NCBI GenBank assembly: GCA_045648745.1
Contig: JAZROM010000078.1
Span: 6,374-70,373 of the forward strand
From: Acutalibacteraceae bacterium
Lineage (GTDB): Bacteria > Bacillota > Clostridia > Oscillospirales > Acutalibacteraceae
Reading direction: 5' to 3'
Length of the DNA: 64,000 bases
Part shown: piece after piece, positions 11,456-31,303 of the stretch
Numbering within the stretch: position 1 is the first letter of the stretch
Layout: each line of letters begins with the position of its first letter
Program-made: the position numbers and the translations under genes
The notes under the pieces: generated by a model
The model's database searches: none
What the model saw: only the letters and a program-made list of their open reading frames with translations
What the model was told of the DNA's origin: nothing

Positions 11456-13420
11456 TCAGGAAAATGGGTAATTAATATGGATTACATCTGATACAGTTTT
11501 TCCGTCTTCAAATGTAGCTGTAGCGGTTATTTTGTGTCGTCCCGATTCAAATATTTCTGCGTTGAAAATCCAAGTGGTATTATCAACCTTCATCATAGAC
11601 ATACTGTCGTAGTAGTTTCCGTTTACTTCATCTGACAGTTCTATTGCAGTTACACCGGGTGAAGTGGTTGCTTTTAAAATAGCATTTTGGCCGTTAGGCT
11701 TGGGCGGGTTTATGACATTGAATGTAAGTTCCACCGAATGGCTTGGAACGGTGACCTGCTCGGTTGTGGTGGTTGTTGTGGTGGTCGAAGAGGGCTGGGG
11801 TTTAGATGGTGTCGTTGCTTCGGTGTTTTTTTCTGGTGTTGTAAAGCTATACGTCGGGCTTATGTAGGATTGGCCGTCAGCAACAACATATAACTTGTAA
11901 TAATATGTCGTGTCAGGTATGAGGTTATAATTGTATTTACTCATTAAAAATTTTAAATTTATGTAGTTTGAATTAATATTGACAATATCGGGTTTTTCGA
12001 CCTTACGCATATCGGATTCGTTTGTTCCGATATAAAAGCCACCTTCTGAGCATTTTACTTTTGATGAAAAATTGATTGTACCACTTATCTGTGCGTTGGT
12101 TTGACTTAACTGCGTTGTTTTGACCGTTCTCCAATCGAAAGATAGCGATTGAAGCGAGTTACTTGAAGTCAGACCGGAAACAGGTAAGTCAGTGATATCG
12201 GAAGGCTCTGAACTTGTGGAAATTAAATCATCAGAAGACGGATTTATATCGTTTTCTTTGTTTTTACTCAAAATGGAAGAAAGTGCAATGATGGCAATTA
12301 AGCCTATAACCACGAAGCTGACGACTGCATTTCGTGTGCGTGTTTTCGGCTTTTGTGTATCTTCGGCTTTTTGCTCATTTTGAGTGTCGAGTAGATCCGA
12401 TTGTGTCATTTCAGCCACAAAATTTTCAAAAGAGTCGACATTTTGGTCGGGCATAGACTGTGAATTAAAGTAAGCGTTAAATTCAGGAGTTTTTTTGATT
12501 TCCTCAAGCATTTCTTTGTATGAACCGAAGCGGTCTTTCGGATAAAGACTAAGTGCTTTTACAACGATTGCTTTGAGCTGATTCGAACCGTTTTCAGGAT
12601 AAGGACATTGTTGGTTTTTTCGCATAAGACGGTTTCGGGGATCGGAAAAGGGATAGCTGCCGTTATTTAAGTAATAGTACATAGTTGCAGCGACAGAATA
12701 CATATCACTCTTTGAAATATCAATATAATCCCTCTGAGGCGTAGTTCTTTCTTCGTAAGCATCCTTGAGCGCAAACCATTCAGGCGCAGTTGTGGGCAGC
12801 GATCCCCTTATATTCTGAGTGGTTGTATCGCCGTTTTCGTTAATGTGAGTAATGGTTCCGAAGTCACCGAGACGAAAACCTTTGGTAATATCATTATCGA
12901 TGACAAAAATATTTCCAGATTTTATGTCTCTGAAAAGAATACGCTCGTCTTGGCATCGTGCCAACAGAACGATAAGACTGTAGCCGAGTCTTAATGCGAG
13001 TTCAGGATATTTTTCTCGGGGAAGTGTATTATGAAAAAGTTCAAGACACGTTCTGTATTTTTCAATAAGACAGTACAATTTGTTCTTGCCCTCTGTAATG
13101 AAATGCCATTCAATCTTGCAGATCAGTTCTTCGCAGCCAATTTCAACAAGACGTGCACTGGCATCGATTATTTTTTCAAATCGATTTGCAATGTCTTCTT
13201 GTTTATTATCTTGATCATAAATAATTTTCAAAACATATTTTTCAGAGGCGTTAGGTGTGTTGAGGTGATACACGAGAACTTGTCCGCCCTGTGCTATAAA
13301 ATCGCTGACCGTTGCATTTTTAAAAAGTGAACGGTCCGACAACTTATATTCTAAATGTTCGTTAATAGACTCTGTTTCGTCCAAAGTAAGTCGAATGTAG
13401 TCTTTTCCTTGCATAAACAT
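11456..13420 (-). CDS. Membrane Hanks-type Ser/Thr protein kinase with an extracellular FN3/Ig-like region (no PASTA domains)
   Basis: The start was re-picked at the 'MFMQGK' ATG (13420), with RBS aggagg 10 nt upstream. The longer ORF to 13564 would overlap the upstream gene. Kinase motifs are 'YVLKI', 'FRDIKSGNIF', 'LGDFGT' and 'TAPEW'. The TM segment is 'VVSFVVIGLIAIIALSSIL'. A poly-Thr linker and beta-rich C-terminal domains follow. Confidence 0.85.
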   Translation of the reverse strand: MFMQGKDYIRLTLDETESINEHLEYKLSDRSLFKNATVSDFIAQGGQVLVYHLNTPNASEKYVLKIIYDQDNKQEDIANRFEKIIDASARLVEIGCEELICKIEWHFITEGKNKLYCLIEKYRTCLELFHNTLPREKYPELALRLGYSLIVLLARCQDERILFRDIKSGNIFVIDNDITKGFRLGDFGTITHINENGDTTTQNIRGSLPTTAPEWFALKDAYEERTTPQRDYIDISKSDMYSVAATMYYYLNNGSYPFSDPRNRLMRKNQQCPYPENGSNQLKAIVVKALSLYPKDRFGSYKEMLEEIKKTPEFNAYFNSQSMPDQNVDSFENFVAEMTQSDLLDTQNEQKAEDTQKPKTRTRNAVVSFVVIGLIAIIALSSILSKNKENDINPSSDDLISTSSEPSDITDLPVSGLTSSNSLQSLSFDWRTVKTTQLSQTNAQISGTINFSSKVKCSEGGFYIGTNESDMRKVEKPDIVNINSNYINLKFLMSKYNYNLIPDTTYYYKLYVVADGQSYISPTYSFTTPEKNTEATTPSKPQPSSTTTTTTTTEQVTVPSHSVELTFNVINPPKPNGQNAILKATTSPGVTAIELSDEVNGNYYDSMSMMKVDNTTWIFNAEIFESGRHKITATATFEDGKTVSDVIHINYPFS

Positions 13421-13446
13421 ATTACTGATACCTCCTGATATATCTG

Positions 13447-15468
13447 TTACGCAAATGGTGAAAACAAATCTTGCTTCTGTACAGAAGGAAAGGTGTCGTT
13501 TGAGAAAAATGTCTCCAACACGTTTTCGAGGATTGGCAGTTCTTCTAAATGTGTTGTCATACAAGATTCAATTAATGAGTGGGAGTCCTTGCCTAACAAC
13601 TTGATAGACTTATTCCACAGGTCAACTAAGCAGGTGCCGTGCTCCTCAAGGTCGTTTGAGTTGCCCAGAAAAATGCTTTTGGAAGGTTTAATACGAATAG
13701 TGTGGCACGTATCAAAAAAGCGTGGAGCCTTATCATATACGCTAACACAACAGTTATTGCGGTCGGTATGAATTTCAATATGACCCTTTTGTGAATCAAT
13801 AGAATCGGCACCAATATAAATGGTATTATTGATGATTTTAATACCGTTTAACAGGCTATGCTTATTGTTATTAAATCTGCCGATTTTAACACTATCAAAT
13901 GCTGATTTGCGAATGTCAATTAACATACCGCTTTCTTCGTCATTAATTGTTTTGTAGTAGACTCCGCGCCTGTTTGTCTTTTTAATATTGAAGTAATTAC
14001 GCAGAGAACGATTGAAAAAGAAAGAGGCAATGTCTTGTTGTTGGTTATCCGTAAAAATACCGAGTTTTACTTTTCCGGATGGGTATATAACAAGTCCTTT
14101 ACCGTGGCGGTTTCCGTAATTAAACTCTCCCGAGTAGCAGCAGATACCATTATCAGTATTTATAACAGTACCTTTTACATGCGGGTATCCATCGGATATT
14201 TCACCGATATAAACATTATAATTGTGATTGGGATCATTTTTATAAACATATACTCCGACACCGCTTCTTTTGTCATCTGCAAAGCTACCGATATAAACAT
14301 CATCTTTACAAACCAGAATACCTTTACCGTGACGTTTGTTGTTCGAAAACTCGCCGATATAAACCTCACCGTTAGAGCAACAGATAGTACCGTGACCGTG
14401 CATTTTTCCGAAGACTACAGTTCCGTAATAAGTATCGCCATTGCCCAAAATAAGTGTTTCATAAGACTTTTTAACAACAGGCTGTTTGTTGACGCGGTTA
14501 AGAAGAGACGTTGTTTTAATGTATGATTCGTATTCAGTTGTTTTTTTGATTTCCTCAAGCATTTCTTCGTATGAACCGAAGCGGTCTTTCGGATAAAGAC
14601 TAAGTGCTTTTACAACGATTGCTTTGAGCTGTTTTGATCCATTTTGGGGAGGCGGGCATGATTTGTCTTCGCCCATTAAGCGATTACGCGTATCGCTGAA
14701 CGGATATTCTTCGTTGTTAAGATAATAGTATACTGTTGCTGCAAGAGAATACATATCACTCTTTGAAATGTCATCAAAATCAGCTGAAGGTTCGCTGTTT
14801 GTTTCACACGCAGCGCCAAGAGCAAACCATTCAGGGGCAGTAGTGGAAAGAGTGCCTCTCAGGTTCTGTGTTGTGGTACCACCTTTTTCATCAATATGAG
14901 TAACAGTACCGAAGTCACCAAGACAGATTCCGCTGGAGAGGCCGTTACCTTTAAGGAAAAGATTTTCCGCTTTTATATCTCGATGGATAAGCTTATTTTT
15001 TTGACAGTGGCACAATAATTCAAGAACATCAACAGCAACTCTGATTGCGATTTCGGGATATTTATCGCGAGTAACAGTATTCTGATGCTCTTTGAGGCAG
15101 ATCCGGCGTTTTTCTACAAGACAATATAACCGATTTTTATCTTCGGTAATAAAATGCCATTCGATTTTGCAGATTAATTCTGTGCAGCCATTTTCGACAA
15201 GGCACGCACTGGCATCGATTATTTTACTGTATCGACTTGTAACTTCCGCTTGGTTGTTGTAATTAAAAAAGATTTTTAAAACATATTTTTCAGAAGTGTC
15301 AGGTGTATCGAGATTATACACAAGTACTTGTCCGCCCTGTGCGATGAAGTCACCAACCGTTGCTTTTTTAAAAATTGAACGGTTCGTCGACTTATATGCA
15401 AAATGGTTATTGATTGACTCGATTTCATCATCAGAGAGTCGGATATGGTTTTGACCGTATGTAATCAT
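13447..15468 (-). CDS. Cytoplasmic Hanks-type Ser/Thr protein kinase with C-terminal MORN repeats
   Basis: The RBS aggggg is present. Kinase motifs are 'YVLKI', 'HRDIKAENLF', 'LGDFGT' and 'TAPEW'. There are at least 4 MORN-like units ('YIGEFSNNKRHGKGI', 'YIGSFADDKRSGVGV', 'YSGEFNYGNRHGKGL'; approx nt 14061-14436). No TM segment was seen. Confidence 0.85.
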   Translation of the reverse strand: MITYGQNHIRLSDDEIESINNHFAYKSTNRSIFKKATVGDFIAQGGQVLVYNLDTPDTSEKYVLKIFFNYNNQAEVTSRYSKIIDASACLVENGCTELICKIEWHFITEDKNRLYCLVEKRRICLKEHQNTVTRDKYPEIAIRVAVDVLELLCHCQKNKLIHRDIKAENLFLKGNGLSSGICLGDFGTVTHIDEKGGTTTQNLRGTLSTTAPEWFALGAACETNSEPSADFDDISKSDMYSLAATVYYYLNNEEYPFSDTRNRLMGEDKSCPPPQNGSKQLKAIVVKALSLYPKDRFGSYEEMLEEIKKTTEYESYIKTTSLLNRVNKQPVVKKSYETLILGNGDTYYGTVVFGKMHGHGTICCSNGEVYIGEFSNNKRHGKGILVCKDDVYIGSFADDKRSGVGVYVYKNDPNHNYNVYIGEISDGYPHVKGTVINTDNGICCYSGEFNYGNRHGKGLVIYPSGKVKLGIFTDNQQQDIASFFFNRSLRNYFNIKKTNRRGVYYKTINDEESGMLIDIRKSAFDSVKIGRFNNNKHSLLNGIKIINNTIYIGADSIDSQKGHIEIHTDRNNCCVSVYDKAPRFFDTCHTIRIKPSKSIFLGNSNDLEEHGTCLVDLWNKSIKLLGKDSHSLIESCMTTHLEELPILENVLETFFSNDTFPSVQKQDLFSPFA

Positions 15469-15503
15469 TTTGGGTACCCCCTAAAAAATTCTGTTAAATA
15501 GAT

Positions 15504-16244
15504 TTAAAACTCCAGGAAAATAGCGGAATAGTCATCATTGTGAATTCTGGTGATTTCGTTATCAATAAACACATATAAGTCTTTGTTGTCAGTCAGATGT
15601 CCTTTTTGCCATTCACTAAAAATATGTGAAGCAATGTGTTGCTCAGGGTTGTCAGATGTTGGTTTAACCCCGTCAGACATTAGCAGGATAGCCTTGAAAG
15701 ATTCTATGGGAAAACGGGATACCCTCATAAAGTCTACAGCATCATCGTCTACCGTAAAATGAGTCTGATTACGGAATCCCATAATATTGTCTGCTGTGGA
15801 AATACACTTGATCTCATTGTTTTTTGTAAGGCCGAAAACTTCACCGTCTCCAAGATGAAGGATGAGGAACTCTTTGTCCGAAACAACAACTCCGATAAAC
15901 GTTGCACAGAAATCGCGAAGATCAGAATCAGTTAAAAACATTCTTCCAGACAAATTCACTATCGCCTGTCTGCAATACATGACAACATCTTCGCCAATCT
16001 CTTTATTGTCAAGACGGACAAGGTCATTTAACGAATATTTTTCAGTGTATTTGCGCATGTAATTAAAAAAAGCGTTGACATTTGTAAAAGCAGCAAGGTC
16101 CGCAAATCTGGCTGAACCGGCACCGTCACTGAGGGCGGCGGTAATATAATTGTCATAAGTAGGCATTATTGCACAAAAATCCTGGCAAGGTTTGTTTGCA
16201 CAAGCATGCTTGGAACTTGTTATGCAGGCTTTATATATATTCAT
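15504..16244 (-). CDS. PP2C-family protein phosphatase (PP2C_2-like)
   Basis: The RBS aaggag is present. Motifs are 'CQDFCAI', 'ALSDGAGSARFADLAA' and 'LLMSDGV'. Confidence 0.7.
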   Translation of the reverse strand: MNIYKACITSSKHACANKPCQDFCAIMPTYDNYITAALSDGAGSARFADLAAFTNVNAFFNYMRKYTEKYSLNDLVRLDNKEIGEDVVMYCRQAIVNLSGRMFLTDSDLRDFCATFIGVVVSDKEFLILHLGDGEVFGLTKNNEIKCISTADNIMGFRNQTHFTVDDDAVDFMRVSRFPIESFKAILLMSDGVKPTSDNPEQHIASHIFSEWQKGHLTDNKDLYVFIDNEITRIHNDDYSAIFLEF

Positions 16245-16263
16245 ATAAATACTCCTTGAGCAA

Positions 16264-17343
16264 TTAAATTGGCAAGATCGATTCTATATCAATTTCCTCT
16301 TCTGTAAAAATTTGTGACAGAGGATATGACATTAATCTGTTACGGATGTAATAATATAACGTTATTGTGCTTTCCTCTTTATTATTATAACAGTCTTTTG
16401 TGTCCGGTTGCATAAAATGGGATAAAATATAAATTAAAGCACTTTCGAAAGGATCAATGGTAGAAAGCAGAGAATAGTCAGCAGCATTAAATATTTCGTT
16501 TATTTCATCTAACTGTAATTCCATGCAAAGCATCAGACAAAGCAAATCGTGTCGTAAAGGCAAGACAGGAAAAGTGTCGTCAAAGATACAACTGCAATTA
16601 TCGATAACAGAAGCCGGAACAGAGTGTTCGGAACAGAATGCTTGAAAGTTATCATATCCGCAGTTTATAAGCTTTTCTGTAAGGCTTTGACGTACCTTAG
16701 ATGCAGTTAACTGATTGTTACATAATGAAGAAAAATAAGTTGAACAGAAAACGGCGTCGTGACTATACTCAAAATCAGAGGTTAAAGATATATCACATTT
16801 TTTTTTATGGATTACTCTTGCTAATCTTTTGTATTTTGGCATGCACGACGAAAAAACATATTGTTTTTCGGTATTTTTATAGTCTTGTTCATCCCGTTTG
16901 GCGAGGTTTAGAAGATATATATATATTACATCCTCGGGGGTATCCGGATTAAGAGGTTCAAAACCAAAGGTTTTCAGCAAATCAGAACAAGAAAGGGAAT
17001 CTTCGGTTGGTTTTAGTGGGTCAAGACCGTAGAGACAAGAAAGGGATATAAAATATTCACGTCGTTTTGGTTGGGAGTGGAACCATTTTGAAACGGTATT
17101 CAGGCTTACACAACAGGTTTCTGACAGTTTGTTTTTACTGGTTATAAAAATCCCTGTGAAACGGTTATAAAAAAGAATTTGCCATTTATCGTCATTCGTA
17201 TGGTTGTATACACTTCTTTCCGGGTCTAAAAGACGGAGGAAGCTCATATCGGACTTGCACCGGAGAATGTCGCTGTATTTACGAAATTCTCCGGAATTTG
17301 ACTGTGAACTACAGTTGTGTGTATCTGTCATTGTTTTCACCAT
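16264..17343 (-). CDS. Uncharacterized protein with two HTH-like (XRE-type) segments; paralog of 17355-18482
   Basis: It shares blocks with its neighbour: 'VSKWFHSQPKRREYFISLSCLYGL' versus 'VRKWKSEPPKIREHFVALCCYFGL', and 'DPFESALIYIL' versus 'NPFEAALIYTL'. The start is uncertain (ATG at 17343 or 17331). The ORF-track start at 17382 overlaps the upstream gene. Confidence 0.6.
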   Translation of the reverse strand: MVKTMTDTHNCSSQSNSGEFRKYSDILRCKSDMSFLRLLDPERSVYNHTNDDKWQILFYNRFTGIFITSKNKLSETCCVSLNTVSKWFHSQPKRREYFISLSCLYGLDPLKPTEDSLSCSDLLKTFGFEPLNPDTPEDVIYIYLLNLAKRDEQDYKNTEKQYVFSSCMPKYKRLARVIHKKKCDISLTSDFEYSHDAVFCSTYFSSLCNNQLTASKVRQSLTEKLINCGYDNFQAFCSEHSVPASVIDNCSCIFDDTFPVLPLRHDLLCLMLCMELQLDEINEIFNAADYSLLSTIDPFESALIYILSHFMQPDTKDCYNNKEESTITLYYYIRNRLMSYPLSQIFTEEEIDIESILPI

Positions 17344-17354
17344 GTTTATAGTTA

Positions 17355-18482
17355 TTATCTTGGGGTAACAAGATTTCGGCACATCATCTTATCAAGATCG
17401 ACCTTTTCCTCAGCAAAAAACTCCGAAAAGAAATCCTGAGAGAGTCTGTGGTATACTTCCATATAAACAGAGCCTTGAGGAAGGCTGAGCTGAGACTCCT
17501 TATTATGTTCACTGAGCATAATTTCTTCTTTTTTAAGATCGGGGTATTCTTTGTAAATGGTTGAAAGTGTATAAATAAGAGCTGCTTCAAACGGGTTCTT
17601 TGAACATAAAGGTTCGAGGCCTGCGGCAACAAGGAATTCATCTGTATTGTCCAATGGAAGACCCATGTGAAGGAATAAAGAAATGAGGTGATTTCGTTTA
17701 GGAATCATAGTTTCAGAATCAATCGTACGCAAAACAACCCGTGCGTAGGTAGCTCCAAGATTGCCGGCAGGAGCTTCGGTGAAAAATTTTGAAGGAGAAC
17801 CGTAGCCTGTGTCATCAAAAAAGTCATGAATCTTTTCCTTAAAGAGGAGGAGCTTAGGGGCGTAGATTTTTTGAGCCTGATATAAGCTGTTTTCGAAAGA
17901 ATAATCCCTCAGTTTTTTAAGGTCACGCTGTGCCTTGCCGTTCTTTTCACTGTTTGAACTCAGAAGGTAATCTCTGATAACAAAGTAGCGGTCTTTGTGG
18001 TTTTTATAAAAAACCTGTTTTTGTTCATCATAAAAATCAGTTCTGTTTGTATGGTTGAGAAGCTGTATATATACTACGTCATCAAGATTGTTCTTGTCGA
18101 GTGAAGCAAAATCTCCGAAGCGTTTCATCATTCTGGAACAGGTATCAACACCGAGACCAAAGTAACAGCAAAGAGCAACAAAGTGCTCGCGAATTTTTGG
18201 GGGTTCTGATTTCCATTTTCGAACAACTTTTCGATCAAGCAAACAGTTTTCGGCAATTGTTGAATCGCTGACCTGATATTCGGCAAGAAGCTTATTGATG
18301 TATTCAATACACCAGGTTTCGTTTCGTTCAACTATAAGGTCAGAATTTTCTTCATAAATCTCTTTAAATGTCTTGTTGTCTTCAACCGCTTTTAACTTTT
18401 TGGATAAAAAAGTAGTATTGTGACCAGCTTTTTCAAAAGGTCGTATTTTGGAAAAAAGTTTTTTAATTGACGGCATATTCAT
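17355..18482 (-). CDS. Uncharacterized protein with two HTH-like (XRE-type) segments; paralog of 16264-17343
   Basis: The RBS aaaggag overlaps the stop codon of the upstream PP2C gene. Paralogy blocks are as described for 16264-17343. I did not recognise any enzymatic motif. Confidence 0.65.
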   Translation of the reverse strand: MNMPSIKKLFSKIRPFEKAGHNTTFLSKKLKAVEDNKTFKEIYEENSDLIVERNETWCIEYINKLLAEYQVSDSTIAENCLLDRKVVRKWKSEPPKIREHFVALCCYFGLGVDTCSRMMKRFGDFASLDKNNLDDVVYIQLLNHTNRTDFYDEQKQVFYKNHKDRYFVIRDYLLSSNSEKNGKAQRDLKKLRDYSFENSLYQAQKIYAPKLLLFKEKIHDFFDDTGYGSPSKFFTEAPAGNLGATYARVVLRTIDSETMIPKRNHLISLFLHMGLPLDNTDEFLVAAGLEPLCSKNPFEAALIYTLSTIYKEYPDLKKEEIMLSEHNKESQLSLPQGSVYMEVYHRLSQDFFSEFFAEEKVDLDKMMCRNLVTPR

Positions 18483-18489
18483 AACTCCT

Positions 18490-19224
18490 TTACTTTTTTA
18501 TAATGATAACAGAAACATTATCATTGAGCATATTGAGATTTTTGCTATTGATGTTAAAAGTTTCTTTTAAAAGCATTTTTTTCATTTTTTTGGGACCTAA
18601 AAGCTCTAATCCGTCGGACATAACAACAAATTTATCATTTGCAGCACAATAACTTTCAAATATACTTACATCTGAATAACCGTATGAACCTAAACACTGG
18701 GTAAGACTGTGATGGTCTATTTCGTCTATTTGTTTTTCAGGGTAGCCATTGTCACGTTTTTGCTCAGCTACTGTGTGAGGTTTGCTTAACCGGATTAACT
18801 TTTTGTCTCTGATGATGTAAATGGGGCTATCCCCGATATTGTACGTGACAAATCTGTTGCCGTAGAAAACAAGAATACTTATTGTCGTACCGCCAATAGC
18901 GTTTTTCTTTGTCAGCTCATCGGAAATACGGCTCTGTGCTTTTTCTATTGCTTCAAGCACGCTTGTATCGATTGTTTCCCTGTCTGAATTAATATTGATT
19001 CTGTCACTTAGGGTTTCTGCTACTGTTTGAACTGCTATTCGGGAGGCTGTTTCTCCCATACTTTCACCACCGACTCCATCACATACTGCAAATACGCAAA
19101 TGTCCTCGTCGGTTTCCGTTTCAGAACTAAAAGCGATCATATTGGTATAAACGCAATTGCCTGCGAGCAGGCTGTCCTGATTGGTTTTTCGAGTTCCTTT
19201 AAAGCTAAGGACTTTAATATTCAT
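18490..19224 (-). CDS. PP2C-type Ser/Thr phosphatase (Stp/PrpC-like)
   Basis: The RBS aaggagag is present. Motifs are 'NQDS', 'VFAVCDGVGGESMGETAS', 'GGTT' and 'VVMSDGL'. Confidence 0.85.
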   Translation of the reverse strand: MNIKVLSFKGTRKTNQDSLLAGNCVYTNMIAFSSETETDEDICVFAVCDGVGGESMGETASRIAVQTVAETLSDRININSDRETIDTSVLEAIEKAQSRISDELTKKNAIGGTTISILVFYGNRFVTYNIGDSPIYIIRDKKLIRLSKPHTVAEQKRDNGYPEKQIDEIDHHSLTQCLGSYGYSDVSIFESYCAANDKFVVMSDGLELLGPKKMKKMLLKETFNINSKNLNMLNDNVSVIIIKK

Positions 19225-19267
19225 TTATTACATGCTCTCCTTTAGCTCAAAACAACACGATATATAA

Positions 19268-19296
19268 TAGTATAATATAAACACATTGCGTTTTCA
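19268..19296 (-). promoter_or_regulatory. Candidate internal sigma-A promoter for the PP2C-HTH-HTH-PP2C-kinase-kinase sub-operon
   Basis: On the minus strand: TTGAAA (19296-19291), a 17-nt spacer, then TATACT (19273-19268). It lies in the 225-nt gap upstream of the PP2C start at 19224. Confidence 0.4.
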
Positions 19297-19449
19297 ACAG
19301 ATTAATACGCTTGAAAGAATATATTTAGTTATTATAAGTTTTTACAGTACGAACGTGTTGTATTTGAGCTGGTTTTTAATAATTATACCATTTATAGACT
19401 TTCATAAAGAAAAAAAGGAAAACAAATTAAACTATTCTGTAAATTCAAG

Positions 19450-19980
19450 TCAAAAGACTCTTCTGTTAAAAAGCAACTCTCTTTCCAACAGAGTTTTGCA
19501 CCTCTTTGAAGAGAGCGGAGAGCGATTCTTTGCAATTACAACAGGTGAATCGCCTATCCAGACCACACGGGAATGCTTAAATGGAACTTTATCAACCCTT
19601 TTTCCTTTGTAGTACAATTGACATGAGGAATCACAGGCAACAAGCAATGGTCTTTTTGAAGAGCTTCTAATGTATGCATGCAGACCATGCACCTGATTGC
19701 CCGTTATAATTCTGAATGAAGCATCTTTTGAACATCCTATGGTAAAGTTATCATGTGCACAGGGTATGGCAACAGAATTAACAATGTTGCCGTTATTTTC
19801 TAACGAATAAATTCTCCAGTCATACCGTTCAAAGAAAATATTGTTCTCTTGGAGCGATGAACTGCTGGTTATACTCTCGGGATTATTTTGCAATGCTTTT
19901 TTTCTTCTGATTGACAGCAGGATTGCAATCAATCCTGCTGTCAGAGCAATAGTAGTAAGAATAATTTCTGTCCAATCCAT
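19450..19980 (-). CDS. N-terminally membrane-anchored FHA-like protein (divergent FHA)
   Basis: The RBS aggagg is present. The TM segment is 'IILTTIALTAGLIAILLSI'. The FHA-like core is 'FTIGCSKDASFRIITGNQVHGLHAYI...LYYKGKRV'. The pre-FHA block 'WRIYSLENNGNIV' is shared with the two other TM-FHA proteins. Confidence 0.6.
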   Translation of the reverse strand: MDWTEIILTTIALTAGLIAILLSIRRKKALQNNPESITSSSSLQENNIFFERYDWRIYSLENNGNIVNSVAIPCAHDNFTIGCSKDASFRIITGNQVHGLHAYIRSSSKRPLLVACDSSCQLYYKGKRVDKVPFKHSRVVWIGDSPVVIAKNRSPLSSKRCKTLLERELLFNRRVF

Positions 19981-19984
19981 GCAA

Positions 19985-21355: not shown

Positions 21356-21371
21356 TATAGAGCCTCCTATG

Positions 21372-22775: not shown

Positions 22776-22793
22776 AAACTTACCTCCCTGGAT

Positions 22794-23438
22794 TCAGCGA
22801 TTGACAGATACTCTGAACGGTCCGTTTTCATTTTTATTGTTATTGTCATTTTTCTCTACCGAAAATGTGAGATTATCGTCTACAGTTATATCTGCAGGCT
22901 TAATAATATCCTGTTTAAGTGAGTTTTTGAAAAAACAGATCGGTGTATCGGCCAGATATACAACCAACTGATGCTCAAGATCAAAAGCGTTTGTAACCGG
23001 AACGCCTTTGATATATGAACTGTTTAGAGACCCGTTGTCTTTGGCATAGAATCCGTTACTGTCTTCTGAAATGATAAGGTGAGTTTTTGAAACAAATTCA
23101 CTTGATTTAATTATAAAATCATCAGAGTTGCTTGAACCGATTGAAAATGCCTTAATTCCATTACCCTTGTCTTTGAGAACAACTTCTTGTGGCTTAGAGA
23201 TAATTCGTCCGGAGGAGTCAAGCTGACATACAGACCATCTTGCAAAAATGCTGGTTTCGTTGTCGGTGGGTTTGCGAAATTTGAATTTCGGATTTTTATC
23301 ACATCTTTTTGAAGAGAGATCACTCTTTTCGGAACCGGCATTCGCAAAGATTTCGGTAAAGTTGAGACCGTTGCCAAGGTTGGAAACAATGATGAATACA
23401 GCGATGATGATTGCGGCGATGAGAATAAGCTTTGTCAT
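22794..23438 (-). CDS. N-terminally membrane-anchored FHA-domain protein
   Basis: The TM segment is 'LILIAAIIIAVFIIV'. The FHA core is 'FSIGSSNSDDFIIKSSEFVSKTHLIISEDSNGFYAKDNGSLNSSYIKG'. The pre-FHA block is 'WSVCQLDSSGRII'. Confidence 0.75.
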   Translation of the reverse strand: MTKLILIAAIIIAVFIIVSNLGNGLNFTEIFANAGSEKSDLSSKRCDKNPKFKFRKPTDNETSIFARWSVCQLDSSGRIISKPQEVVLKDKGNGIKAFSIGSSNSDDFIIKSSEFVSKTHLIISEDSNGFYAKDNGSLNSSYIKGVPVTNAFDLEHQLVVYLADTPICFFKNSLKQDIIKPADITVDDNLTFSVEKNDNNNKNENGPFRVSVNR

Positions 23439-24475: not shown

Positions 24476-24518
24476 AAAATCATTCCTTTACATTATGTAA
24501 TATGGGGTGTACTTATCT

Positions 24519-25079
24519 CTAGCGGAGATTAAAGTTTTTTGTTTTACCGTCCGTATGGCTACCAGAGCCAGCAGTAGAAGAACCACCATAGAGTCTGGTT
24601 CCGTCAGAGAAGAACTCGGGTTCAAAAACATAATTTTTCATAAATGCAATGTACGTGTCTCCAAGACAAAGTACTTTTTTGTCTTCGAGCGGAATAAGAC
24701 TTTTTACACGCTCTCCTTTGAAAAACGTACCGTTGGAAGATTCGTTATCAATTGCAAAATATTCGCCGTTTTTCTTCAGCACAACAAGGTGGCAGTTGTC
24801 CACATAGTGACTCTTAAGCCTGAACTGGCAGTCGGATGAGGTGCCGATTGTAAAAACGTCGTCATTGTCAAGGTTGATGGTTGCTCTGTTTGTACGACCG
24901 TTTCTGACGATTCTTTTTCCGTTCTTGTCGAGCTCATAGACAACCCATTCAGCAGGATCGGGGGATCGGTTGCTTGTGTTACACTGTTTTTTGAGGTGTT
25001 TAGTGAGCCAAACGGCCATGCCGACTATGGCAGCTGAAAGAATGACGATAAAGATTTCGGGATAGATGACTGTTTTCAT
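24519..25079 (-). CDS. N-terminally membrane-anchored FHA-domain protein
   Basis: I prefer the ATG at 25079 (RBS aaggtg 6 nt upstream) over the GTG at 25088. The TM segment is 'IFIVILSAAIVGMAVWL'. The FHA core is 'FTIGTSSDCQFRLKSHYVDNCHLVVLKKNGEYFAIDNESSNGTFFKGERV'. The pre-FHA block is 'WVVYELDKNGKRI'. Confidence 0.8.
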   Translation of the reverse strand: MKTVIYPEIFIVILSAAIVGMAVWLTKHLKKQCNTSNRSPDPAEWVVYELDKNGKRIVRNGRTNRATINLDNDDVFTIGTSSDCQFRLKSHYVDNCHLVVLKKNGEYFAIDNESSNGTFFKGERVKSLIPLEDKKVLCLGDTYIAFMKNYVFEPEFFSDGTRLYGGSSTAGSGSHTDGKTKNFNLR

Positions 25080-25425
25080 GTTTTTCACCTTTCTTTCTTG
25101 TTTCAGGAAAAGATTTCCTTGTAAAAATTATAAAACAGAATAAAAGAAACAATAAAAAATAGGAATATAAAACAGAAAAACTGATATTGATTGAGAACAA
25201 CATCAGTTTTCAGAAGGTTTCAGATTTAGGCTATCTTTGAAATACAACTGCAAAAAGCTTACCGCATCAGCGATTTCTTTGTCAGTTGCACAGGTTCATT
25301 GCAGTCTGCCCGATAACGTGAGGAGTTATCAGAGATTACGAAGATTTCAAATTGCATTCCGTAAATCAGAGAACTTTAAAATCCAACAAACAACAAAGGT
25401 TTTTAAGTTGTTTTCATAGATAATA

Positions 25426-25836
25426 TTATATTACATCATTACTTGTTTTCGGCTCCTTAAAAAGCTTATATTGCTTTCTGTAGAAAATACGAGTGATTAA
25501 ACCCAGGACAATTTGCTCGATAGCAAACAATATCGCATATATAATAAATCCGGCAAATACACTGGTTGCAACGATATCATAATCAAAGAAGGATGCCTCA
25601 GATATCATCTTAACAAGAGAGATGTTTATCGGAATGGTTGTAAATGTTGCTATAACAAACATCCAAAGGTTTTCTCGATGTTTAAACACGGGTATTTTAA
25701 GTATAAGAAGCATACCGAGTGCTATTATTGTAAAAAGGATTACGGAAGTATAATAAGTTGCAATTGCCGATAAAATTGCAGGTACAGTTACTAACAGTAA
25801 AAATTTTACAGAATTAAATGTGTTTTTCTTTTTCAT
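25426..25836 (-). CDS. Small polytopic membrane protein (about 4 TM segments), unknown function
   Basis: The RBS agaggtga overlaps the end of the upstream gene. Four hydrophobic segments are visible, and there is a 1-nt gap to the S2P-like gene. Confidence 0.6.
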   Translation of the reverse strand: MKKKNTFNSVKFLLLVTVPAILSAIATYYTSVILFTIIALGMLLILKIPVFKHRENLWMFVIATFTTIPINISLVKMISEASFFDYDIVATSVFAGFIIYAILFAIEQIVLGLITRIFYRKQYKLFKEPKTSNDVI

Positions 25837-25837
25837 T

Positions 25838-26818: not shown

Positions 26819-26848
26819 AATAAAACCTCCTTGCGGTGATGAACATTT

Positions 26849-26879
26849 GCATGCTTGTACAGGTTGTGTACAAGCATGC
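26849..26879 (-). promoter_or_regulatory. Perfect 13-bp stem-loop in the Lon to S2P intercistronic region
   Basis: The structure is gcatgcttgtaca-ggttg-tgtacaagcatgc. It lies between the Lon stop (26890) and the S2P RBS, and no U-tract follows on the minus strand. Confidence 0.5.
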
Positions 26880-26889
26880 TGTGTTTTTA

Positions 26890-29800
26890 TTAGGCGATTT
26901 TTCTGTGAAGCTCGGTGAAGATATTTTCAATGACCTGAGAAACATGATTAATTGGGATAACCTCAACGGAAAACATGTCCAGATCATCTTTTGAAAGCTC
27001 TTTATAGTTTCCTTCAGGAATAAACACCTTTGAGCAACCGGACTGTTCTGCGGCCTGAATCTTCGCAATAGTGCCACCGATGTTGAAAACATAACCATTA
27101 CCGTTAATTTCACCGGTATACGAAACATTTTCAACAATAGGAGTGTTGAAAACTGCAGAAAGCAGTGACATAAGAATTGCGACACCAGCAGAGGGGCCGT
27201 CCTTCTGAACTGCACCTTCGCCAAAATGAATGTGAATGCCCTTGTTTGAGAGGATTCCCTTGTAGTGGCGTTTTATATAGCTGATTGCAAGCTTTACACT
27301 GTCAACAGTACTTTCTTTAGGAAGACCCGTAATAGTCAACGAGTTTTCGTCAGGAATAAGCATAGTTTCAACAGAAAAAGCCATGCCGCAGTTGTTACCG
27401 GTAACAGCAAGAGCTTTTGAAAGACCGGGGTAATTTTCATAAGGAAAGTTACCTCTTTCTGCAGGAGGATTGCCGAGAACAGACTTGATATCATCGGCAC
27501 CAATGATAAGCTTTCTTTCATCGGAAGAGAACAACTTGTCTCTTATGAGTCTCTTGATAGCCTTGTCAGCATCACGAACACCGAAGGAACGACAGTATAC
27601 TTCGACAATAAGCTTCTGTGCTTCCTTAGAAAAGGTTACTTCGTAACCTGTAGGAACAAGTTCCGAAACAGCCTTGGGAATAATATAATTATGGATGATT
27701 TCAGCCTTTTCTTTTTCTGTGTAGCCTTCAAGATGAATAACTGTAAATCTGTCAAGAAGAACAGAATCGATTGCAGAAAGATCATTAGCTGTTGCAATAT
27801 ACATAACTCCTGATAAGTCAACAGGCTGTCCGATAAAACTGTCTGTGAATTCGGAAGAATCATCAAGCAGATCAACCAAAGCATTAGTTGCCGAAACTCC
27901 TTCTCGTGAACCCATTTTATCAATCTCATCAAGGTGAACAATACCTTTTGATGTTTTCATTTTGTGAACAGCTCTGATAATCATTCCGGCGTCTGCACCG
28001 ATATATGATAATGAATGACCTTTAATTGATACATCATCGGAAATACCGTTTAAAGAAATTTTACAGTATGCTGAGTTGCATGCCTTGGCAATACTCTTAA
28101 CGATAGATGTTTTTCCGATACCGGGAGGTCCTACAAAAAGCAGTCTCGTTGCAGACAAAGGTCTGCTATTAAGAGCACAAACATTAAAAATCTGTGCAAC
28201 CTCTCTCTTTACATTCTCCATACCGTAGTGAGTTGTATTAACTTCGGCATAAAAATGTTCTTTATCGAAACAAGAAAATGCATTACCGACAGGAATAAGA
28301 TTCACAAGATAATTAAGCTTTTTCTCGTATTTCTCTTTTACCTCGCTGTCAAGGTTTTCCCGTTTAAGCTTCGCAATAAGGTATTTTATTTCTTCTGAGA
28401 TTTCAGGAGAATAAAGCGATTTGTTACGACGATGAATAATAGCCGGAGAATTCTTGTTAACAGTACTGTCAAGTGTTGCGTCAACAAAGGCTTTGTCAAC
28501 GATGATCTGGTTTCTCGTTCCTGCCGAATCCCATATTGAAAGCACTCTTCTTACGATACTTTCAATACCTTTTTTAAGATCTCTTGCGCCATCGTCTTCA
28601 CAAAAATTCTGTGCAATATATTTTATTACATCATCATTAATGATAATCTCTTCAGCACCAATATCAAAATCCTTGAGAATGGAAGGTGAAATGAATTTCT
28701 GTGCAATTTCAACCTTTTCGTCTTCTTCATAATCATCAACATTGATAACTGTAAATCTGTTAAGAAGATTTGCAGGGATGGTATCAGTTGAATTAGCAGT
28801 TGCGATGAAGATGGTGTTTTGTGTATTTATGTATGTCCCAAGAAAAGCATCCTTGAAATAATGCTCATCTGAAAGAGCATCATTGAATGCTTTGCTTACG
28901 GTTCCGCCTTCTTTAGTGGATTCATAGGATTTATCATATTCATCAAGTCCGAAAACTACTCGTGTGGTACCAACCTTGTAATAGTTCTTAACTACCTCAC
29001 CACAATCTGAAGCATCATAGTGCGGTGCATCTCCCAAAACATCAACTACTGATGTTGAGGATCCGAGCGGGATTACAAAGAAAGGAATTCCAAGCACTTC
29101 CGCAACAGCTTTCATAATAGCGGTTTTTCCGACTCCCGGGGAGCCTACAAGAAGAACGCAAAAGCCTTTCTTGTTACTGTACTTAGACGCCACAATCGCT
29201 TCAGCAAGCTTTTCTTTGAGTTTGTTGTGTTTGTGTAAAATACTGTCAAGTTTCGCAATGATTTCTTCTTTAGTCATTGAAATGTCCTGTGAAACACCCT
29301 GATTGATATTAAGGATATATGAAAGTCTTCTTGTAGCTCTTGTTTTGTTTGCATAAGTCAGACTTCTGCATTCTTCAAACATGGCTTCAATATCCCTTTG
29401 CTGCTGAGGAGTGTATGTGTTTCTGCACATATCAAACTTGAGCCTGAGCGTTTCTGTATCTGTAGAAGGAACAGGTGAGTTTTTTACTGTTGCAAACTTT
29501 TCACCGAAGAGCTGTTCCTTGAATGATTCCTGAACGCTTGCCGGAAGATTAAGGAACATATTCATCGCATTAAGCTTTTTTTCAACAGTATCAAAAGCAT
29601 TAAACATGTCGTAAAACTCTTTTGATACAACTGCTTTTGCAACACATTCAGTGTTGATTCTACACATAATATATACCGTTTCACCCGCAATAATATATTT
29701 CTGAGGCATAATTGTATCTGATGAGATTTTAGCCTCAAGAGGGTGATTCTTAAAAAGAAGTTTCATGGACATGTCAGCAGATAAAACAAGATTGCTTTCG

Positions 29801-29982
29801 TAGATATGCTCAAATACGATATAGCCTGATTTGTCAAGAGTTGTATTCGTGCATTTTGTGTTTGTTTCAGAACTTATCTGCGACTGAATCAGCTCGTTTG
29901 CGACACGGTCGAGAATAGCTACAACGTTTTCTTCCGGAAGTGTATTGATAAGTTTGATAAAATGCTCTATTTTGTCCATCAT
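26890..29982 (-). CDS. Lon-family protease with a unique N-terminal region, two tandem Lon-type AAA+ modules and a C-terminal Ser-Lys protease domain
   Basis: The RBS gaggagg is present. The first AAA+ module has 'LLVGSPGVGKTAI...GLDEYDK...IATANSTDTIPANLLNRF'. The second has 'LFVGPPGIGKTSI...HLDEIDKMG...IATANDLSAIDSVLLDRF'. The protease domain has 'KDGPSAGVAILMSLLSA' and 'GGTIAKIQAA'. Confidence 0.85.
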   Translation of the reverse strand: MMDKIEHFIKLINTLPEENVVAILDRVANELIQSQISSETNTKCTNTTLDKSGYIVFEHIYESNLVLSADMSMKLLFKNHPLEAKISSDTIMPQKYIIAGETVYIMCRINTECVAKAVVSKEFYDMFNAFDTVEKKLNAMNMFLNLPASVQESFKEQLFGEKFATVKNSPVPSTDTETLRLKFDMCRNTYTPQQQRDIEAMFEECRSLTYANKTRATRRLSYILNINQGVSQDISMTKEEIIAKLDSILHKHNKLKEKLAEAIVASKYSNKKGFCVLLVGSPGVGKTAIMKAVAEVLGIPFFVIPLGSSTSVVDVLGDAPHYDASDCGEVVKNYYKVGTTRVVFGLDEYDKSYESTKEGGTVSKAFNDALSDEHYFKDAFLGTYINTQNTIFIATANSTDTIPANLLNRFTVINVDDYEEDEKVEIAQKFISPSILKDFDIGAEEIIINDDVIKYIAQNFCEDDGARDLKKGIESIVRRVLSIWDSAGTRNQIIVDKAFVDATLDSTVNKNSPAIIHRRNKSLYSPEISEEIKYLIAKLKRENLDSEVKEKYEKKLNYLVNLIPVGNAFSCFDKEHFYAEVNTTHYGMENVKREVAQIFNVCALNSRPLSATRLLFVGPPGIGKTSIVKSIAKACNSAYCKISLNGISDDVSIKGHSLSYIGADAGMIIRAVHKMKTSKGIVHLDEIDKMGSREGVSATNALVDLLDDSSEFTDSFIGQPVDLSGVMYIATANDLSAIDSVLLDRFTVIHLEGYTEKEKAEIIHNYIIPKAVSELVPTGYEVTFSKEAQKLIVEVYCRSFGVRDADKAIKRLIRDKLFSSDERKLIIGADDIKSVLGNPPAERGNFPYENYPGLSKALAVTGNNCGMAFSVETMLIPDENSLTITGLPKESTVDSVKLAISYIKRHYKGILSNKGIHIHFGEGAVQKDGPSAGVAILMSLLSAVFNTPIVENVSYTGEINGNGYVFNIGGTIAKIQAAEQSGCSKVFIPEGNYKELSKDDLDMFSVEVIPINHVSQVIENIFTELHRKIA

Positions 29983-30038
29983 AGTTTACCTCCTCGTTGA
30001 TGGTTTGTATCTTCACTGTCTGTATCGGTTACTGTTGA

Positions 30039-30800
30039 TTAAGAAATGTCGCTTTTGCCTTCTTCATCCGGAATTGCGAGGAGCTGATCAAAAAGACTGC
30101 CCGGGACAACATCAGAAGAATCTTCTGATGATTCCTCTTCCTTTTTTGCAAAAAGACTGGATGCAATGGCATCTCTGCGTTCAGCTCTTTTACGAATCCA
30201 CTCTGAAAATCCGGGAGGTTCGGGAAGGTTTATGTGATGAAAATCTTCTTTATCTTCATTTTCGTTTTCGCCGAACGGGAAGTTATCAGGTAAATCTTCT
30301 GTGAGCTGCTTTGCAATTTTCTCGATATGTTTTTTAATTACTTTTTCAACATCAGCTTCATCAGGTTCAAGAAGCTTCATGTGAGCGAGCTTTTCGAGAG
30401 GGATGTTAAATGCATCAAGAATTTTAACACATTCGCCTTCCATAATTTTGAACATTAAAACACTGAGTGGTGCATCATCAAAACGCTGTTCTGTGTGAAT
30501 ATGAAGGTTTCCGTTAGGTGCAATACGGAGATTGCAACATTTGTAGTTTGCGTTTATCTTGTCAATGTATTCCCCAATCTGTGAACGGGCCTCTTTAGGG
30601 CAATGAATTGAAGGGGAGATTTCCATAATGACCACTTCTGCGCTTTTATCGATTCTTGTGATTACAGAGTAGGTTCTGTCTGATGTATCAATGCGGGCTG
30701 TAAAGCCTTCACCATCCATCATTTTGGCGGTGTATTTGTGATCTGATATTGCATAATAAGTTTCACCGTTATGCATTGTTTCGTTAAAGTATTTTGACAT
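30039..30800 (-). CDS. Hypothetical cytoplasmic protein with an acidic C-terminal tail (N-domain vaguely YbjN/chaperone-like)
   Basis: The RBS aaggaga is present. There is no TM segment. The C-terminal 90 aa are rich in D, E and S. The fold assignment is only a guess. Confidence 0.55.
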   Translation of the reverse strand: MSKYFNETMHNGETYYAISDHKYTAKMMDGEGFTARIDTSDRTYSVITRIDKSAEVVIMEISPSIHCPKEARSQIGEYIDKINANYKCCNLRIAPNGNLHIHTEQRFDDAPLSVLMFKIMEGECVKILDAFNIPLEKLAHMKLLEPDEADVEKVIKKHIEKIAKQLTEDLPDNFPFGENENEDKEDFHHINLPEPPGFSEWIRKRAERRDAIASSLFAKKEEESSEDSSDVVPGSLFDQLLAIPDEEGKSDIS

Positions 30801-30937
30801 AATAACATCTCCTTTTTGATAATTGCTTATTGGATTTAAGCATTCTTCATTTATAAGTAAAACAGATTTTTGAGCCTTTGACGGGAAATAGGAGAGCTTT
30901 TTAAATGTTTTTCTCCATAGACTCGTCCATCGTTGGC
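30801..30937 (-). promoter_or_regulatory. Leader/promoter module, copy 1 of 2 (duplicated upstream of two consecutive genes)
   Basis: On the minus strand, the blocks 'cctatttcccg(t/c)caaa', 'aaaaatctgttttacttataa', 'cttaaa(a)tccaataagcaattat' and 'aaaggagatgtt' are shared with 31304-31420. Each copy ends at the RBS and ATG. Confidence 0.6.
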
Positions 30938-31303
30938 TTAGTCTGAAAGCACATTGGGCATTTTACCGTTTTTAAGTGCAATATAATGTAAAATCAAATA
31001 GACGAGCATTTCTGAATCGGAAAGAATTCCTTCTTCATCATAAATTTCACAATTTACGATGGATGAAATGATAGCAATAAGAGGTTTAGTGTTTTTTTCG
31101 TCTTTCATTACCGCAAAGGGCTGGTTGGCGATTCTTGTGAATGCAATGGATTCGTTTCTTTTAATGCCGGAGGACATACTCAAAATATCGTGTATTTTTT
31201 TGAACATAATCAAGTCTTCAAAATTAAGCATACAGTCGATTTCGAGAAGGGTGTTTGTGATGCTATCGAAGGTGTAGGTGTTGATAATTTCTTTGATTGT
31301 CAT
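30938..31303 (-). CDS. Hypothetical small cytoplasmic protein (121 aa), first gene of the minus-strand supercluster
   Basis: The RBS aaggaga is present. I recognised no motifs. Confidence 0.55.
   Translation of the reverse strand: MTIKEIINTYTFDSITNTLLEIDCMLNFEDLIMFKKIHDILSMSSGIKRNESIAFTRIANQPFAVMKDEKNTKPLIAIISSIVNCEIYDEEGILSDSEMLVYLILHYIALKNGKMPNVLSD

Follow-up and report, generated by a model that had tools for sequence, protein, structure and literature searches.

We analysed a stretch of 64,000 nucleotides (the window) from an Acutalibacteraceae bacterium (Clostridia; positions 6,374 to 70,373 of the forward strand of contig JAZROM010000078.1, GenBank assembly GCA_045648745.1), which carries a 20-kb array of 17 contiguous minus-strand open reading frames (ORFs) running from 31303 to 11456, uninterrupted by any plus-strand gene of notable size (Table 1). 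The array brings together a Lon protease with two AAA+ modules, a SEDS glycosyltransferase paired with a penicillin-binding protein of class B (bPBP), and Hanks-type Ser/Thr kinases with PP2C phosphatases. The ORF list bears out the 17 co-directional genes of a preliminary description made from the sequence alone; the short gaps reported there hold for most intervals but not for four, of 337 bp (25089-25425), 225 bp (19225-19449), 158 bp and 137 bp, and ORF overlaps of 118 and 28 nt probably reflect the choice of upstream TTG/GTG starts. Nearly all of its domain calls were recovered with Pfam, on which the assignments below rest (reporting limit E ≤ 0.01 for PASTA, PF03717 and PF21922), the weaker ones being the third transmembrane (TM) FHA protein, the M50 protease, the Asp-box protein and the helix-turn-helix (HTH)-like proteins. 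Kyte-Doolittle scans for TM segments placed a single N-terminal helix in the three FHA-like proteins, the 292-aa protein and the bPBP, which fits the topology proposed earlier. Catalytic motifs are readable in the bPBP, the SEDS protein, the kinases, the PP2Cs, Lon and the M50-like protein.

Table 1. Genes and other features of the 20-kb array, listed in the direction of transcription (positions in the window).
Feature	Position	Strand	Basis
Promoter-like/5′-leader repeat, copy 1	31337..31413	-	Upstream of the 121-aa gene w01
w01, 121 aa	30938..31303	-	No Pfam or PADLOC match
Promoter-like/5′-leader repeat, copy 2	30835..30911	-	Upstream of w02
w02, ~165-aa globular domain plus long acidic tail	30039..30800	-	Recurrent partner of the tandem-AAA+ Lon
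Lon carrying two full Lon-type AAA+ modules, 1030 aa	26890..29982	-	Pfam AAA x2, Lon_lid x2, Lon_C
M50/S2P-like intramembrane metalloprotease, 326 aa	25838..26818	-	Sub-cut-off Pfam M50 match plus motifs
Small membrane protein (4-TM), 136 aa	25426..25836	-	Four hydrophobic segments
337-bp gap between Lon module and FHA-SEDS module	25089..25425	-	Terminator-like hairpin 25176-25211, predicted
TM-FHA, 189 aa, degenerate phosphate-binding site	24519..25088	-	Pfam FHA 3.5e-11, N-terminal TM
TM-anchored, presumably extracytoplasmic protein, 292 aa	23597..24475	-	Two Asp-box-like motifs, N-terminal TM
TM-FHA, 214 aa, canonical Arg lost	22794..23438	-	Pfam FHA 9e-10
Divergent SEDS glycosyltransferase, 467 aa	21372..22775	-	Pfam FTSW_RODA_SPOVE 3e-23
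Short class-B PBP transpeptidase, 456 aa	19985..21355	-	Pfam Transpeptidase PF00905 4e-37, 128 bits
TM-anchored FHA-like protein, 176 aa, strongly degenerate	19450..19980	-	Paralogy, no Pfam match
225-bp gap before PP2C gene	19225..19449	-	25% GC, promoter-like sites, predicted
PP2C phosphatase, 244 aa	18490..19224	-	Pfam PP2C_2 4e-16, PP2C 1.6e-10
HTHx-1, all-alpha, Xre-like HTH	17355..18482	-	Profile family, AlphaFold2 model
HTHx-2, paralog of HTHx-1 (27% identity)	16264..17382	-	Sequence comparison
PP2C_2-type phosphatase, 246 aa	15504..16244	-	Pfam PP2C_2 7e-30
Hanks kinase, soluble, MORN repeats at C-terminus, 673 aa	13447..15468	-	Pfam Pkinase 3.5e-17, MORN 1e-22 (4 stretches)
Membrane-spanning Hanks kinase, Ser/Thr-rich extracellular part	11456..13564	-	Pfam Pkinase 5e-15, one TM helix
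GC-rich hairpin directly past the last kinase stop	11388..11430	-	ATCAGTAACACCCCTGTGCA..TGCACAGGGGTGTTACTGAT seen in sequence

Read from its upstream end, the array falls into three parts. Module A (31303-25426) holds the acidic-tail protein w02, the tandem-AAA+ Lon, the M50/S2P-like protease and the 4-TM protein. Module B1 (25088-19450) comprises degenerate membrane-anchored FHA proteins, an extracytoplasmic protein, the divergent SEDS protein and the short PbpA-like transpeptidase, together a predicted accessory peptidoglycan synthase, and module B2 (19224-11456) is a putative Ser/Thr phospho-signalling unit made up of a PP2C, two HTH paralogs (here HTHx), a PP2C_2-type phosphatase and two kinases, one soluble with MORN repeats and one in the membrane with an ectodomain other than PASTA. 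The predicted junctions are the 337-bp gap with its terminator-like hairpin for A/B1 and an AT-rich, promoter-like gap for B1/B2.

Each part was traced as homologous loci (L-numbers) in public assemblies. The full layout, Lon module included, was seen in only one locus besides the window, the near-identical L011 (SEDS 90%). Loci L008-L010 (SEDS 50%) carry a block in the order FHA, SEDS, bPBP, FHA-like, (an extra FHA), PP2C, HTHx, HTHx, PP2C_2, MORN kinase, kinase, the orthologs sharing 31-68% amino acid identity with the window proteins, and the Lon, M50-like and 4-TM genes are all absent from them. Lon relatives, for their part, were found in small units (81% in L005, 58% in L007, 54% in L001-L004, 44% in L044 and 38% in L045), with no FHA, SEDS, bPBP or related kinase gene nearby in L001-L007, L044 or L045. 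The Lon gene is accompanied by a w02 homolog and/or the M50-like and 4-TM genes in four of five lineages, L044 having neither; a 1128-aa Pkinase gene lies ~2 kb upstream of Lon in L045 and is unrelated to the window kinases (the kinase profile gave no match). Minimal subsets of the remaining genes also occur, as an FHA-like/SEDS/bPBP trio isolated between leucine-rich repeat (LRR) genes in L025 and as a PP2C/HTHx/PP2C_2/kinase unit in L012. From L008, which has the B genes without Lon, and from the Lon-only loci, it therefore follows that the proteolysis genes are separable from the wall and signalling genes.

Overall, the data present module A as a proteolysis unit that is found on its own in other Clostridia, and modules B1 and B2 as a pair inherited together, next to which lies a Lon unit with a distribution of its own. 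We consequently favour, at a probability of roughly 0.6, reading the 20-kb array as a co-directional juxtaposition of three modules rather than as one indivisible system. The preliminary description had taken all 17 genes, both proteases included, for a single self-contained system, a view not supported by L008, devoid of Lon, M50-like and 4-TM genes, or by the Lon units devoid of SEDS and related kinase genes. The splitting of neighbourhoods that it had itself envisaged as the alternative applies in part: the Lon module does split off, and the wall and signalling genes do co-occur.

The tandem-AAA+ architecture proposed earlier for the Lon protein was confirmed by Pfam, which returned two AAA, two Lon_lid and one Lon_C match (121 bits). 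Walker A and B motifs are readable in both AAA+ modules, and the protein has both the GPSAG Ser motif and the Lys. The modules share 33% identity over 203 aa (E = 5e-37) and a 63-nt stretch that is 79% identical between the copies, 1008 nt apart, all of which points to an internal duplication as their origin. The first module, with its own lid, is preceded by a ~250-aa N-terminal region of no known type. In a PDB sequence search, residues ~556-1020 matched solved LonA structures (1e-70) and the first AAA+ module was covered by no solved Lon structure; the score against TIGR00763 was 482 bits, under the 608 cut-off. Hence the C-terminal half is LonA-like, with an AAA+ module and an S16 protease domain retaining Ser and Lys, whereas the protein departs from LonA in having two AAA+ modules, not one, and in lacking the PF02190 substrate-binding N-domain. 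This domain was absent from the window Lon and from all members of a family of ~55 clusters (at 90% identity), all in gut/rumen-type Clostridia assemblies, while canonical Lon proteins matched by the same family search do carry it. A scan of viral contigs gave zero relatives of the tandem-AAA+ Lon, and a two-AAA+ Lon was not described in the literature searched. According to PMC6722904, the helical N-region of LonA is proposed to stem from a lost first AAA+ module; a duplicated, apparently intact module would represent a natural two-tier Lon and would bear on that proposal.

Homologs of w02 lie directly upstream of Lon in L011 (87%), L005 (70%), L007 (32%) and L001 (26%), and one (54%) heads the Lon-less cluster of L008. 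The protein had no match in Pfam, PDB or NCBIfam, a PDB profile search remaining at chance level (E = 0.16 to 0.2), and its single-sequence AlphaFold2 model is unreliable (predicted local distance difference test [pLDDT], 46); at most tentatively, it may resemble YbjN or T3SS chaperones. The ortholog of w01 was seen solely in L011, w01 being absent from the Lon unit of the other loci. Both genes are preceded by a copy of a ~77-nt direct repeat (81% identical), the 42-nt core of which has two matches in the window against 0 expected and none elsewhere in the window. Each copy has a -10-like TTATAA, a common ribosome-binding site region and the shared TATTTCCCGYCAAA..AAAAATCTGTTTTACTTATAA. Because leader sequence and ribosome-binding region are common to the two, they suggest separate but co-regulated transcription starts for w01 and w02, and may constitute a common operator or promoter.

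The S2P/M50 assignment of the next gene product did not reach the Pfam threshold (21.5 versus 27.2 bits) and stands on its motifs: H154, E155 and H158 of HExxH and N246, D254 and G255 of NxxxxxxxDG are invariant in four homologs, down to 26% identity. Homologs with invariant HExxH and N..DG adjoin Lon in L005, L007 and L045, and those of the 4-TM gene come after the M50-like gene in L005 (62%) and L045. Like the site-2 proteases RseP, RasP and SpoIVFB, the M50-like protein is multi-pass, with HExxH in a TM segment and N..DG downstream; unlike them, it falls under the M50 gathering score, has no PDZ or CBS domain and has a tandem-AAA+ Lon as its usual neighbour. Its N-terminus is a ~95-aa soluble domain of no recognised type. 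The best NCBIfam match was the daptide HExxH intramembrane protease (38 bits against a 300 cut-off), a protease of ribosomally synthesized and post-translationally modified peptide (RiPP) systems, and in L005 the surroundings of the w02-Lon-M50-4TM-p147 unit include a pair of radical-SAM/SPASM-type enzymes and a number of ORFs of 44-68 aa (7029-8399, 8811-9017, 16700-18007 and 18004-18498).

The SEDS protein matched PF01098 at 82.9 bits against a cut-off of 26.4, over profile positions 14-349 of 356, indicating a full-length SEDS domain. Among 5.8 billion proteins its relatives comprised one at 90% and one at 50% identity, all others being at or below 30%, and none was found in 185,579 GTDB species, one genome each. 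Scores against the NCBIfam equivalogs FtsW (100 vs 337.5 bits), RodA (80 vs 336.7) and SpoVE (49 vs 448.8) all fell short. The bPBP shows the SxxK (SVIK), SxN (SAN) and KTG motifs and a TM helix at residues 7-25, which place it in class B. Neither the pedestal PF03717 nor PBPA_dimer PF21922 was detected at the limit given above, and its N-terminal region measures only ~140 aa. The best PDB sequence matches were chains of ~450-480 aa (4mnr, 4ra7, 4jbf and 4n1x), followed at later ranks by Enterococcus faecium PBP5 and then by Mycobacterium tuberculosis (Mtb) PbpA at 2e-12; NCBIfam PBP2 was matched at 130 against 455 bits, the SpoVD cut-off was likewise far from reached, and identity to the L008 ortholog was 64%. 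Because its components score far under the NCBIfam equivalog cut-offs and its SEDS protein is extremely rare, the set, judged from the window genes, argues for an accessory rather than a housekeeping system, as the preliminary description had suggested.

Membrane-anchored FHA-like proteins frame this pair. The third TM-FHA reported earlier (19450-19980) had no Pfam match and owes its assignment to paralogy with 24519-25088 (28% over 107 aa, E = 5e-10). Aligned approximately in the loops to the FHA domain of Rv1747, the 24519-25088 protein has GT for GR and DNCH for SRxH, the Ser being lost too; 22794-23438, aligned also with homologs and with the same reserve for loops, has GS for GR and retains the S, H and N; and 19450-19980, again with an approximate loop alignment, has GC for GR and no NG motif. 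Orthologs in L008 are 43% (22794-23438) and 31% (19450-19980) identical. A fourth TM-FHA in L008 (13333-13887), lying between the FHA-like gene and the PP2C gene, has canonical GR, S, H and N; tblastn of the window gap at the equivalent site (225 bp, AT-rich) found no remnant of it. For the 292-aa protein, the TM anchor of the proposed Asp-box exoprotein stands, and the Asp-box itself is sub-threshold (weak BNR matches, E = 0.016); L008 has two paralogs (36-37%) at its position.

The multiplication of signalling parts claimed in the preliminary description is clearest for the kinases, whose domains (12455-13423 and 14506-15471) share 63% amino acid and 71-78% nucleotide identity and represent a recent tandem duplicate. 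Their C-terminal parts have wholly diverged: one kinase carries MORN repeats there, the other a TM helix with a Ser/Thr-rich ectodomain. The MORN kinase has no TM helix, and its HRD and DFG are readable; the membrane kinase has FRD in place of HRD and its true start is probably at 13420 (MFMQGKDY...). Neither gave a PASTA match, as predicted, and PknB_PASTA_kin was matched at 46-47 bits against a cut-off of 450. For the PP2C at 18490-19224 the best NCBIfam model was Stp1/IreP (102 bits against 230), and the PP2C_2-type phosphatase is 68% identical to its L008 ortholog and found in L012 too.

HTHx-1 and HTHx-2, kept as a pair in L008 (53% and 51%), matched no Pfam family themselves, so the HTH label given earlier depends on relatives with weak HTH_3, HTH_26 or Cro matches at the equivalent position near the N-terminus (E = 4e-5 to 5e-3), and DNA binding is putative. 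A word-indexed search yielded three relatives only, an exhaustive profile search 266 representatives (E ≤ 1e-3), mostly of 330-400 aa. Longer members are fusions, of kinase and HTHx (P0106), of PP2C and HTHx (P0147, P0173 and P0216) and of HTHx with two FHA domains (P0130 and P0191). A Hanks kinase gene lies no more than ~3 kb downstream of HTHx in all 12 GTDB Clostridia loci, directly adjacent in nine; an FHA gene intervenes between HTHx and kinase in L021, and HTHx is flanked by a kinase gene and an FHA gene in L032. In a distant human-gut subgroup the kinase is upstream and an FHA gene directly downstream, and a metagenome scan with the close subgroup returned only distant relatives (23-24%), mostly of one human-gut locus type. 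Pattern scanning was done with a four-sequence alignment, wider alignments being too divergent.

The AlphaFold2 model of HTHx-1 is all-alpha (pLDDT, 79; predicted template modelling score, 0.81). A Foldseek search of the PDB gave no whole-fold match (best E = 1.8) and sub-matches to the Xre-type HTH proteins C.AhdI, HigA and 3op9; the HTHx profile found nothing among PDB sequences. These sub-matches and the weak N-terminal matches of its relatives are shared ground with Xre regulators. The differences are a length of ~350 aa, an all-alpha make-up with an apparent internal repeat (alignment judged by eye), the lack of a Pfam family, and a specific tie to Hanks kinases, PP2C and FHA through adjacency and fusion. 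On sequence grounds, we conclude that HTHx is an uncharacterised family of kinase-linked, putative HTH proteins, probably kinase substrates or outputs. A family with neither Pfam model nor solved structure would thereby supply candidates for direct transcriptional outputs of bacterial Ser/Thr kinases.

Signals at the module borders agree with this partition as predictions. The hairpin at 25176-25211, 3′ of the 4-TM gene, has a 14-pair stem followed by a T-run and is a predicted terminator; the gap at 19225-19449 contains a promoter-like TTGAAA-17-TATACT (19297-19269) plus a TGGTATAAT. The hairpin past the last kinase gene was missed by the terminator scan because it lacks a clean T-run. Operon boundaries are given as predictions since the promoter/terminator scan of the window showed overall no enrichment over shuffles.

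Under the three-module reading, the membrane kinase would sense an envelope or external cue, and targets of phosphorylation by the kinases would be the HTH proteins, the synthase with its FHA-like anchors, or both. The HTH proteins would set transcription, the FHA-like anchors would scaffold or gate the SEDS-bPBP pair, and the two PP2Cs would reset the phosphorylation state, the outcome being conditional, specialised wall synthesis in a Ruminococcus-like Clostridium.

Several observations weigh against this reading or parts of it. The co-conservation of B1 and B2 rests on a small sample, just two independent lineages, and the missing SEDS and bPBP genes in L012 are weak evidence, its contig being short (6.3 kb). 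GC content and GC at third codon positions are even across the modules, so that composition shows no separate origin. None of the three window FHA domains has the canonical phosphate-binding Arg (T, S or C stands in its place), and because of this a classical phosphothreonine (pThr) recognition by the set is doubtful. Finally, L008 has a w02 homolog and p129 directly upstream of module B. The latter and p147 are related proteins of ~130-147 aa (45% identical), encoded directly past w02 in L008 (6696-7085) and past the 4-TM gene in L005 (14595-15038), absent from the window and without a remnant in its intergenic gaps. In appearance, L008 is thus a module A stripped of Lon-M50-4TM and set before module B, and since it keeps w02 and p129 there, an A-type module beside B would predate the split of the two lineages. 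A functional tie between A and B is accordingly possible, at low probability. Conserved chromosomal synteny was considered as an argument and dropped, the histidine kinase/LytTR pairs near L008 and in the window being only 34% identical.

The same adjacency gives some substance to the idea of one integrated 17-gene system, in which the phospho-regulated wall synthase would be gated by Lon and the M50-like protease, through cleavage and degradation of membrane-tethered FHA proteins, HTH proteins or w02. In the window and in L011 its genes adjoin one another on one strand; w02 and the p129/p147 gene, which bracket Lon-M50-4TM in L005, stand directly upstream of B in L008, making the adjacency older than the window lineage; single-pass membrane-anchored FHA proteins would be plausible S2P substrates; and L045 has its large kinase gene 2 kb upstream of the Lon unit. 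We nonetheless consider it unlikely. L008 has all of B without Lon, M50-like and 4-TM genes, the five Lon lineages are without FHA, SEDS, bPBP or related kinase (that of L045 being unrelated), a predicted terminator-like hairpin occupies the 337-bp gap between the modules, and the repeated leader of w01 and w02 was not seen before module B genes. Similarly unlikely is a variant in which the Lon unit, as a dedicated arm for regulated proteolysis, has become coupled in this lineage to the kinase/PP2C/HTHx/SEDS-bPBP system. Either the tethered pseudo-FHA anchors would then be freed by the intramembrane protease, or HTHx or w02 would be removed by the two-tier Lon, and a specialised wall-synthesis or differentiation programme would be irreversibly switched on. 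Whether or not such a link exists, both the two-AAA+ Lon and the kinase-linked HTHx proteins would count as families that had gone unrecognised, each working by a mechanism of its own.

As regards its surroundings, the array is flanked by very large BspA-type LRR proteins with dockerin (1-10464 and 31907-38161). Relatives likewise lie among BspA-type LRR genes (L008, 1-85; L025, 998-5086 and 9007-15604), and some of the flanking LRR surface proteins carry dockerin, Big_2 or transglutaminase domains. An M23 peptidase gene is also found upstream in L008. Together with the flanking genes, the homologs of array parts, which stem from Clostridia, make it reasonable to place the host as a Ruminococcus-like Firmicute. 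Two cobalamin riboswitches (RF00174, ~50 bits each; 43010-43179 and 45900-46032) lie on the plus strand upstream of plus-strand genes and are unrelated to the array. Around the Lon units, IS66 and Mutator transposases are close by in L005, a helicase/AAA/DUF2201 trio is near the unit in L007, and a ~990-aa HD_3 protein is encoded a few kilobases away in two lineages (HD_3 and context genes at 3476-9022 and 15792-18761 in L007 and at 1283-4255 in L005). The HD_3/helicase surroundings may represent a defence-island context.

That the array itself is a conflict or defence island, with kinase/PP2C/FHA signalling and a Lon-like protease serving an anti-phage or inter-bacterial function and wall remodelling as the effector, seems to us improbable. 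Such a role would suit the rare, patchy distribution, the fast-diverging sequences, the location among variable BspA-LRR/dockerin surface-protein genes and the helicase/AAA/DUF2201 set, HD_3 proteins and transposases near the Lon units of L005 and L007; the kinases, moreover, match the PADLOC models MAD6, PD-T4-6 and Stk2. Against it, the PADLOC-DB matches were generic kinase and AAA ones, with no system-specific component and none for w01, w02, the M50-like protein, the 4-TM protein, HTHx or w07 (FHA, SEDS, bPBP and PP2C were left out of this comparison). Viral contigs held no Lon relative, and the HTHx-kinase pairs of other Clostridia stand in ordinary metabolic contexts. To our knowledge, no known defence system uses a SEDS-bPBP pair, which we also count against this explanation. 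Most improbable of all is a divergent housekeeping elongation or division locus that would correspond, in a Firmicute, to PrkC/PrpC plus RodA/PBP2, because the window, while showing one SEDS, one bPBP, PP2C and Hanks kinases with intact catalytic motifs, yields scores 3-9 times under the equivalog cut-offs, no PASTA domain, a SEDS protein with two relatives above 30% and none in GTDB representatives where a housekeeping RodA or FtsW would be expected to show thousands, and a similar SEDS/bPBP pair that in L025 forms an isolated trio between LRR genes.

Much work has been devoted to the phospho-control of SEDS-bPBP pairs in Actinobacteria and to the PASTA kinases of Firmicutes. To these the three-module array would add an accessory version from gut/rumen Clostridia that lacks PASTA domains; its likely outputs are HTH proteins of its own, and classical pThr binding has probably been lost from its FHA domains. 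The by-products of the analysis, the tandem-AAA+ Lon and the HTHx family, may outweigh the cluster itself.

With the PrkC/PrpC (Stk1/Stp1) locus the array has in common a Hanks kinase and a PP2C tied to envelope biology, Stp1/IreP being the best phosphatase model; unlike that locus, it is without PASTA domains, scores far below the respective models (102 vs 230 and 47 vs 450 bits), has its kinases and phosphatases duplicated and has a SEDS/bPBP pair embedded among them.

A parallel in gene neighbourhood has been described in Senegalimassilia and Streptomyces, where a PbpA-type bPBP and a SEDS protein are flanked by Ser/Thr kinase and phosphatase genes, PBPA_dimer-type bPBPs being reported mainly in Actinomycetota and Bacillota (PMC12516126). 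The window likewise has a short non-pedestal bPBP adjoining SEDS, kinase and phosphatase genes; it differs in that PF21922 was undetected in its bPBP and in having the HTHx pair, the degenerate TM-FHA proteins and the Lon module, which are not in that description. The earlier statement that no characterised system has this composition therefore holds for the whole array and not for the bPBP and SEDS pair with kinase and phosphatase (PMC12516126). What is new is the variant composition, together with the tandem-AAA+ Lon and HTHx families, both uncharacterised, the kinase-linked SEDS-bPBP pair being already known.

In content, the array does resemble the actinobacterial fhaA-fhaB-pstP-rodA-pbpA-pknA-pknB locus to which it had been likened from the start. 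The window differs in gene order (FHA-SEDS-bPBP-FHA-PP2C-...-kinases) and has additional members, namely a second phosphatase (PP2C_2-type), the HTHx pair and an extracytoplasmic protein. PknB has PASTA repeats and neither window kinase does, and the window FHA domains fail the conserved Arg/Ser/His/Asn test of competence. The host is a Clostridium-type Firmicute, the cluster is rare (two lineages), not phylum-wide, and there is no evident orthology (Mtb PbpA, 2e-12; PknB_PASTA_kin, 47 bits), the likeness being at the domain level only. On the other side, all seven types are present and co-directional (two FHA, a PP2C, a SEDS, a PbpA-type bPBP and two Hanks kinases), the bPBP is short and without the canonical pedestal, and the two kinase genes are in tandem. 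Proteins of the FhaB/FipA class have an N-terminal TM helix and a C-terminal FHA domain, as do the TM-FHA proteins of the window. By analogy, the likely logic in both cases would be phospho-control of a SEDS-bPBP synthase, and modules B1 and B2 would thus be functionally analogous, not orthologous, to the actinobacterial pknAB/pstP/rodA/pbpA/fhaAB locus.

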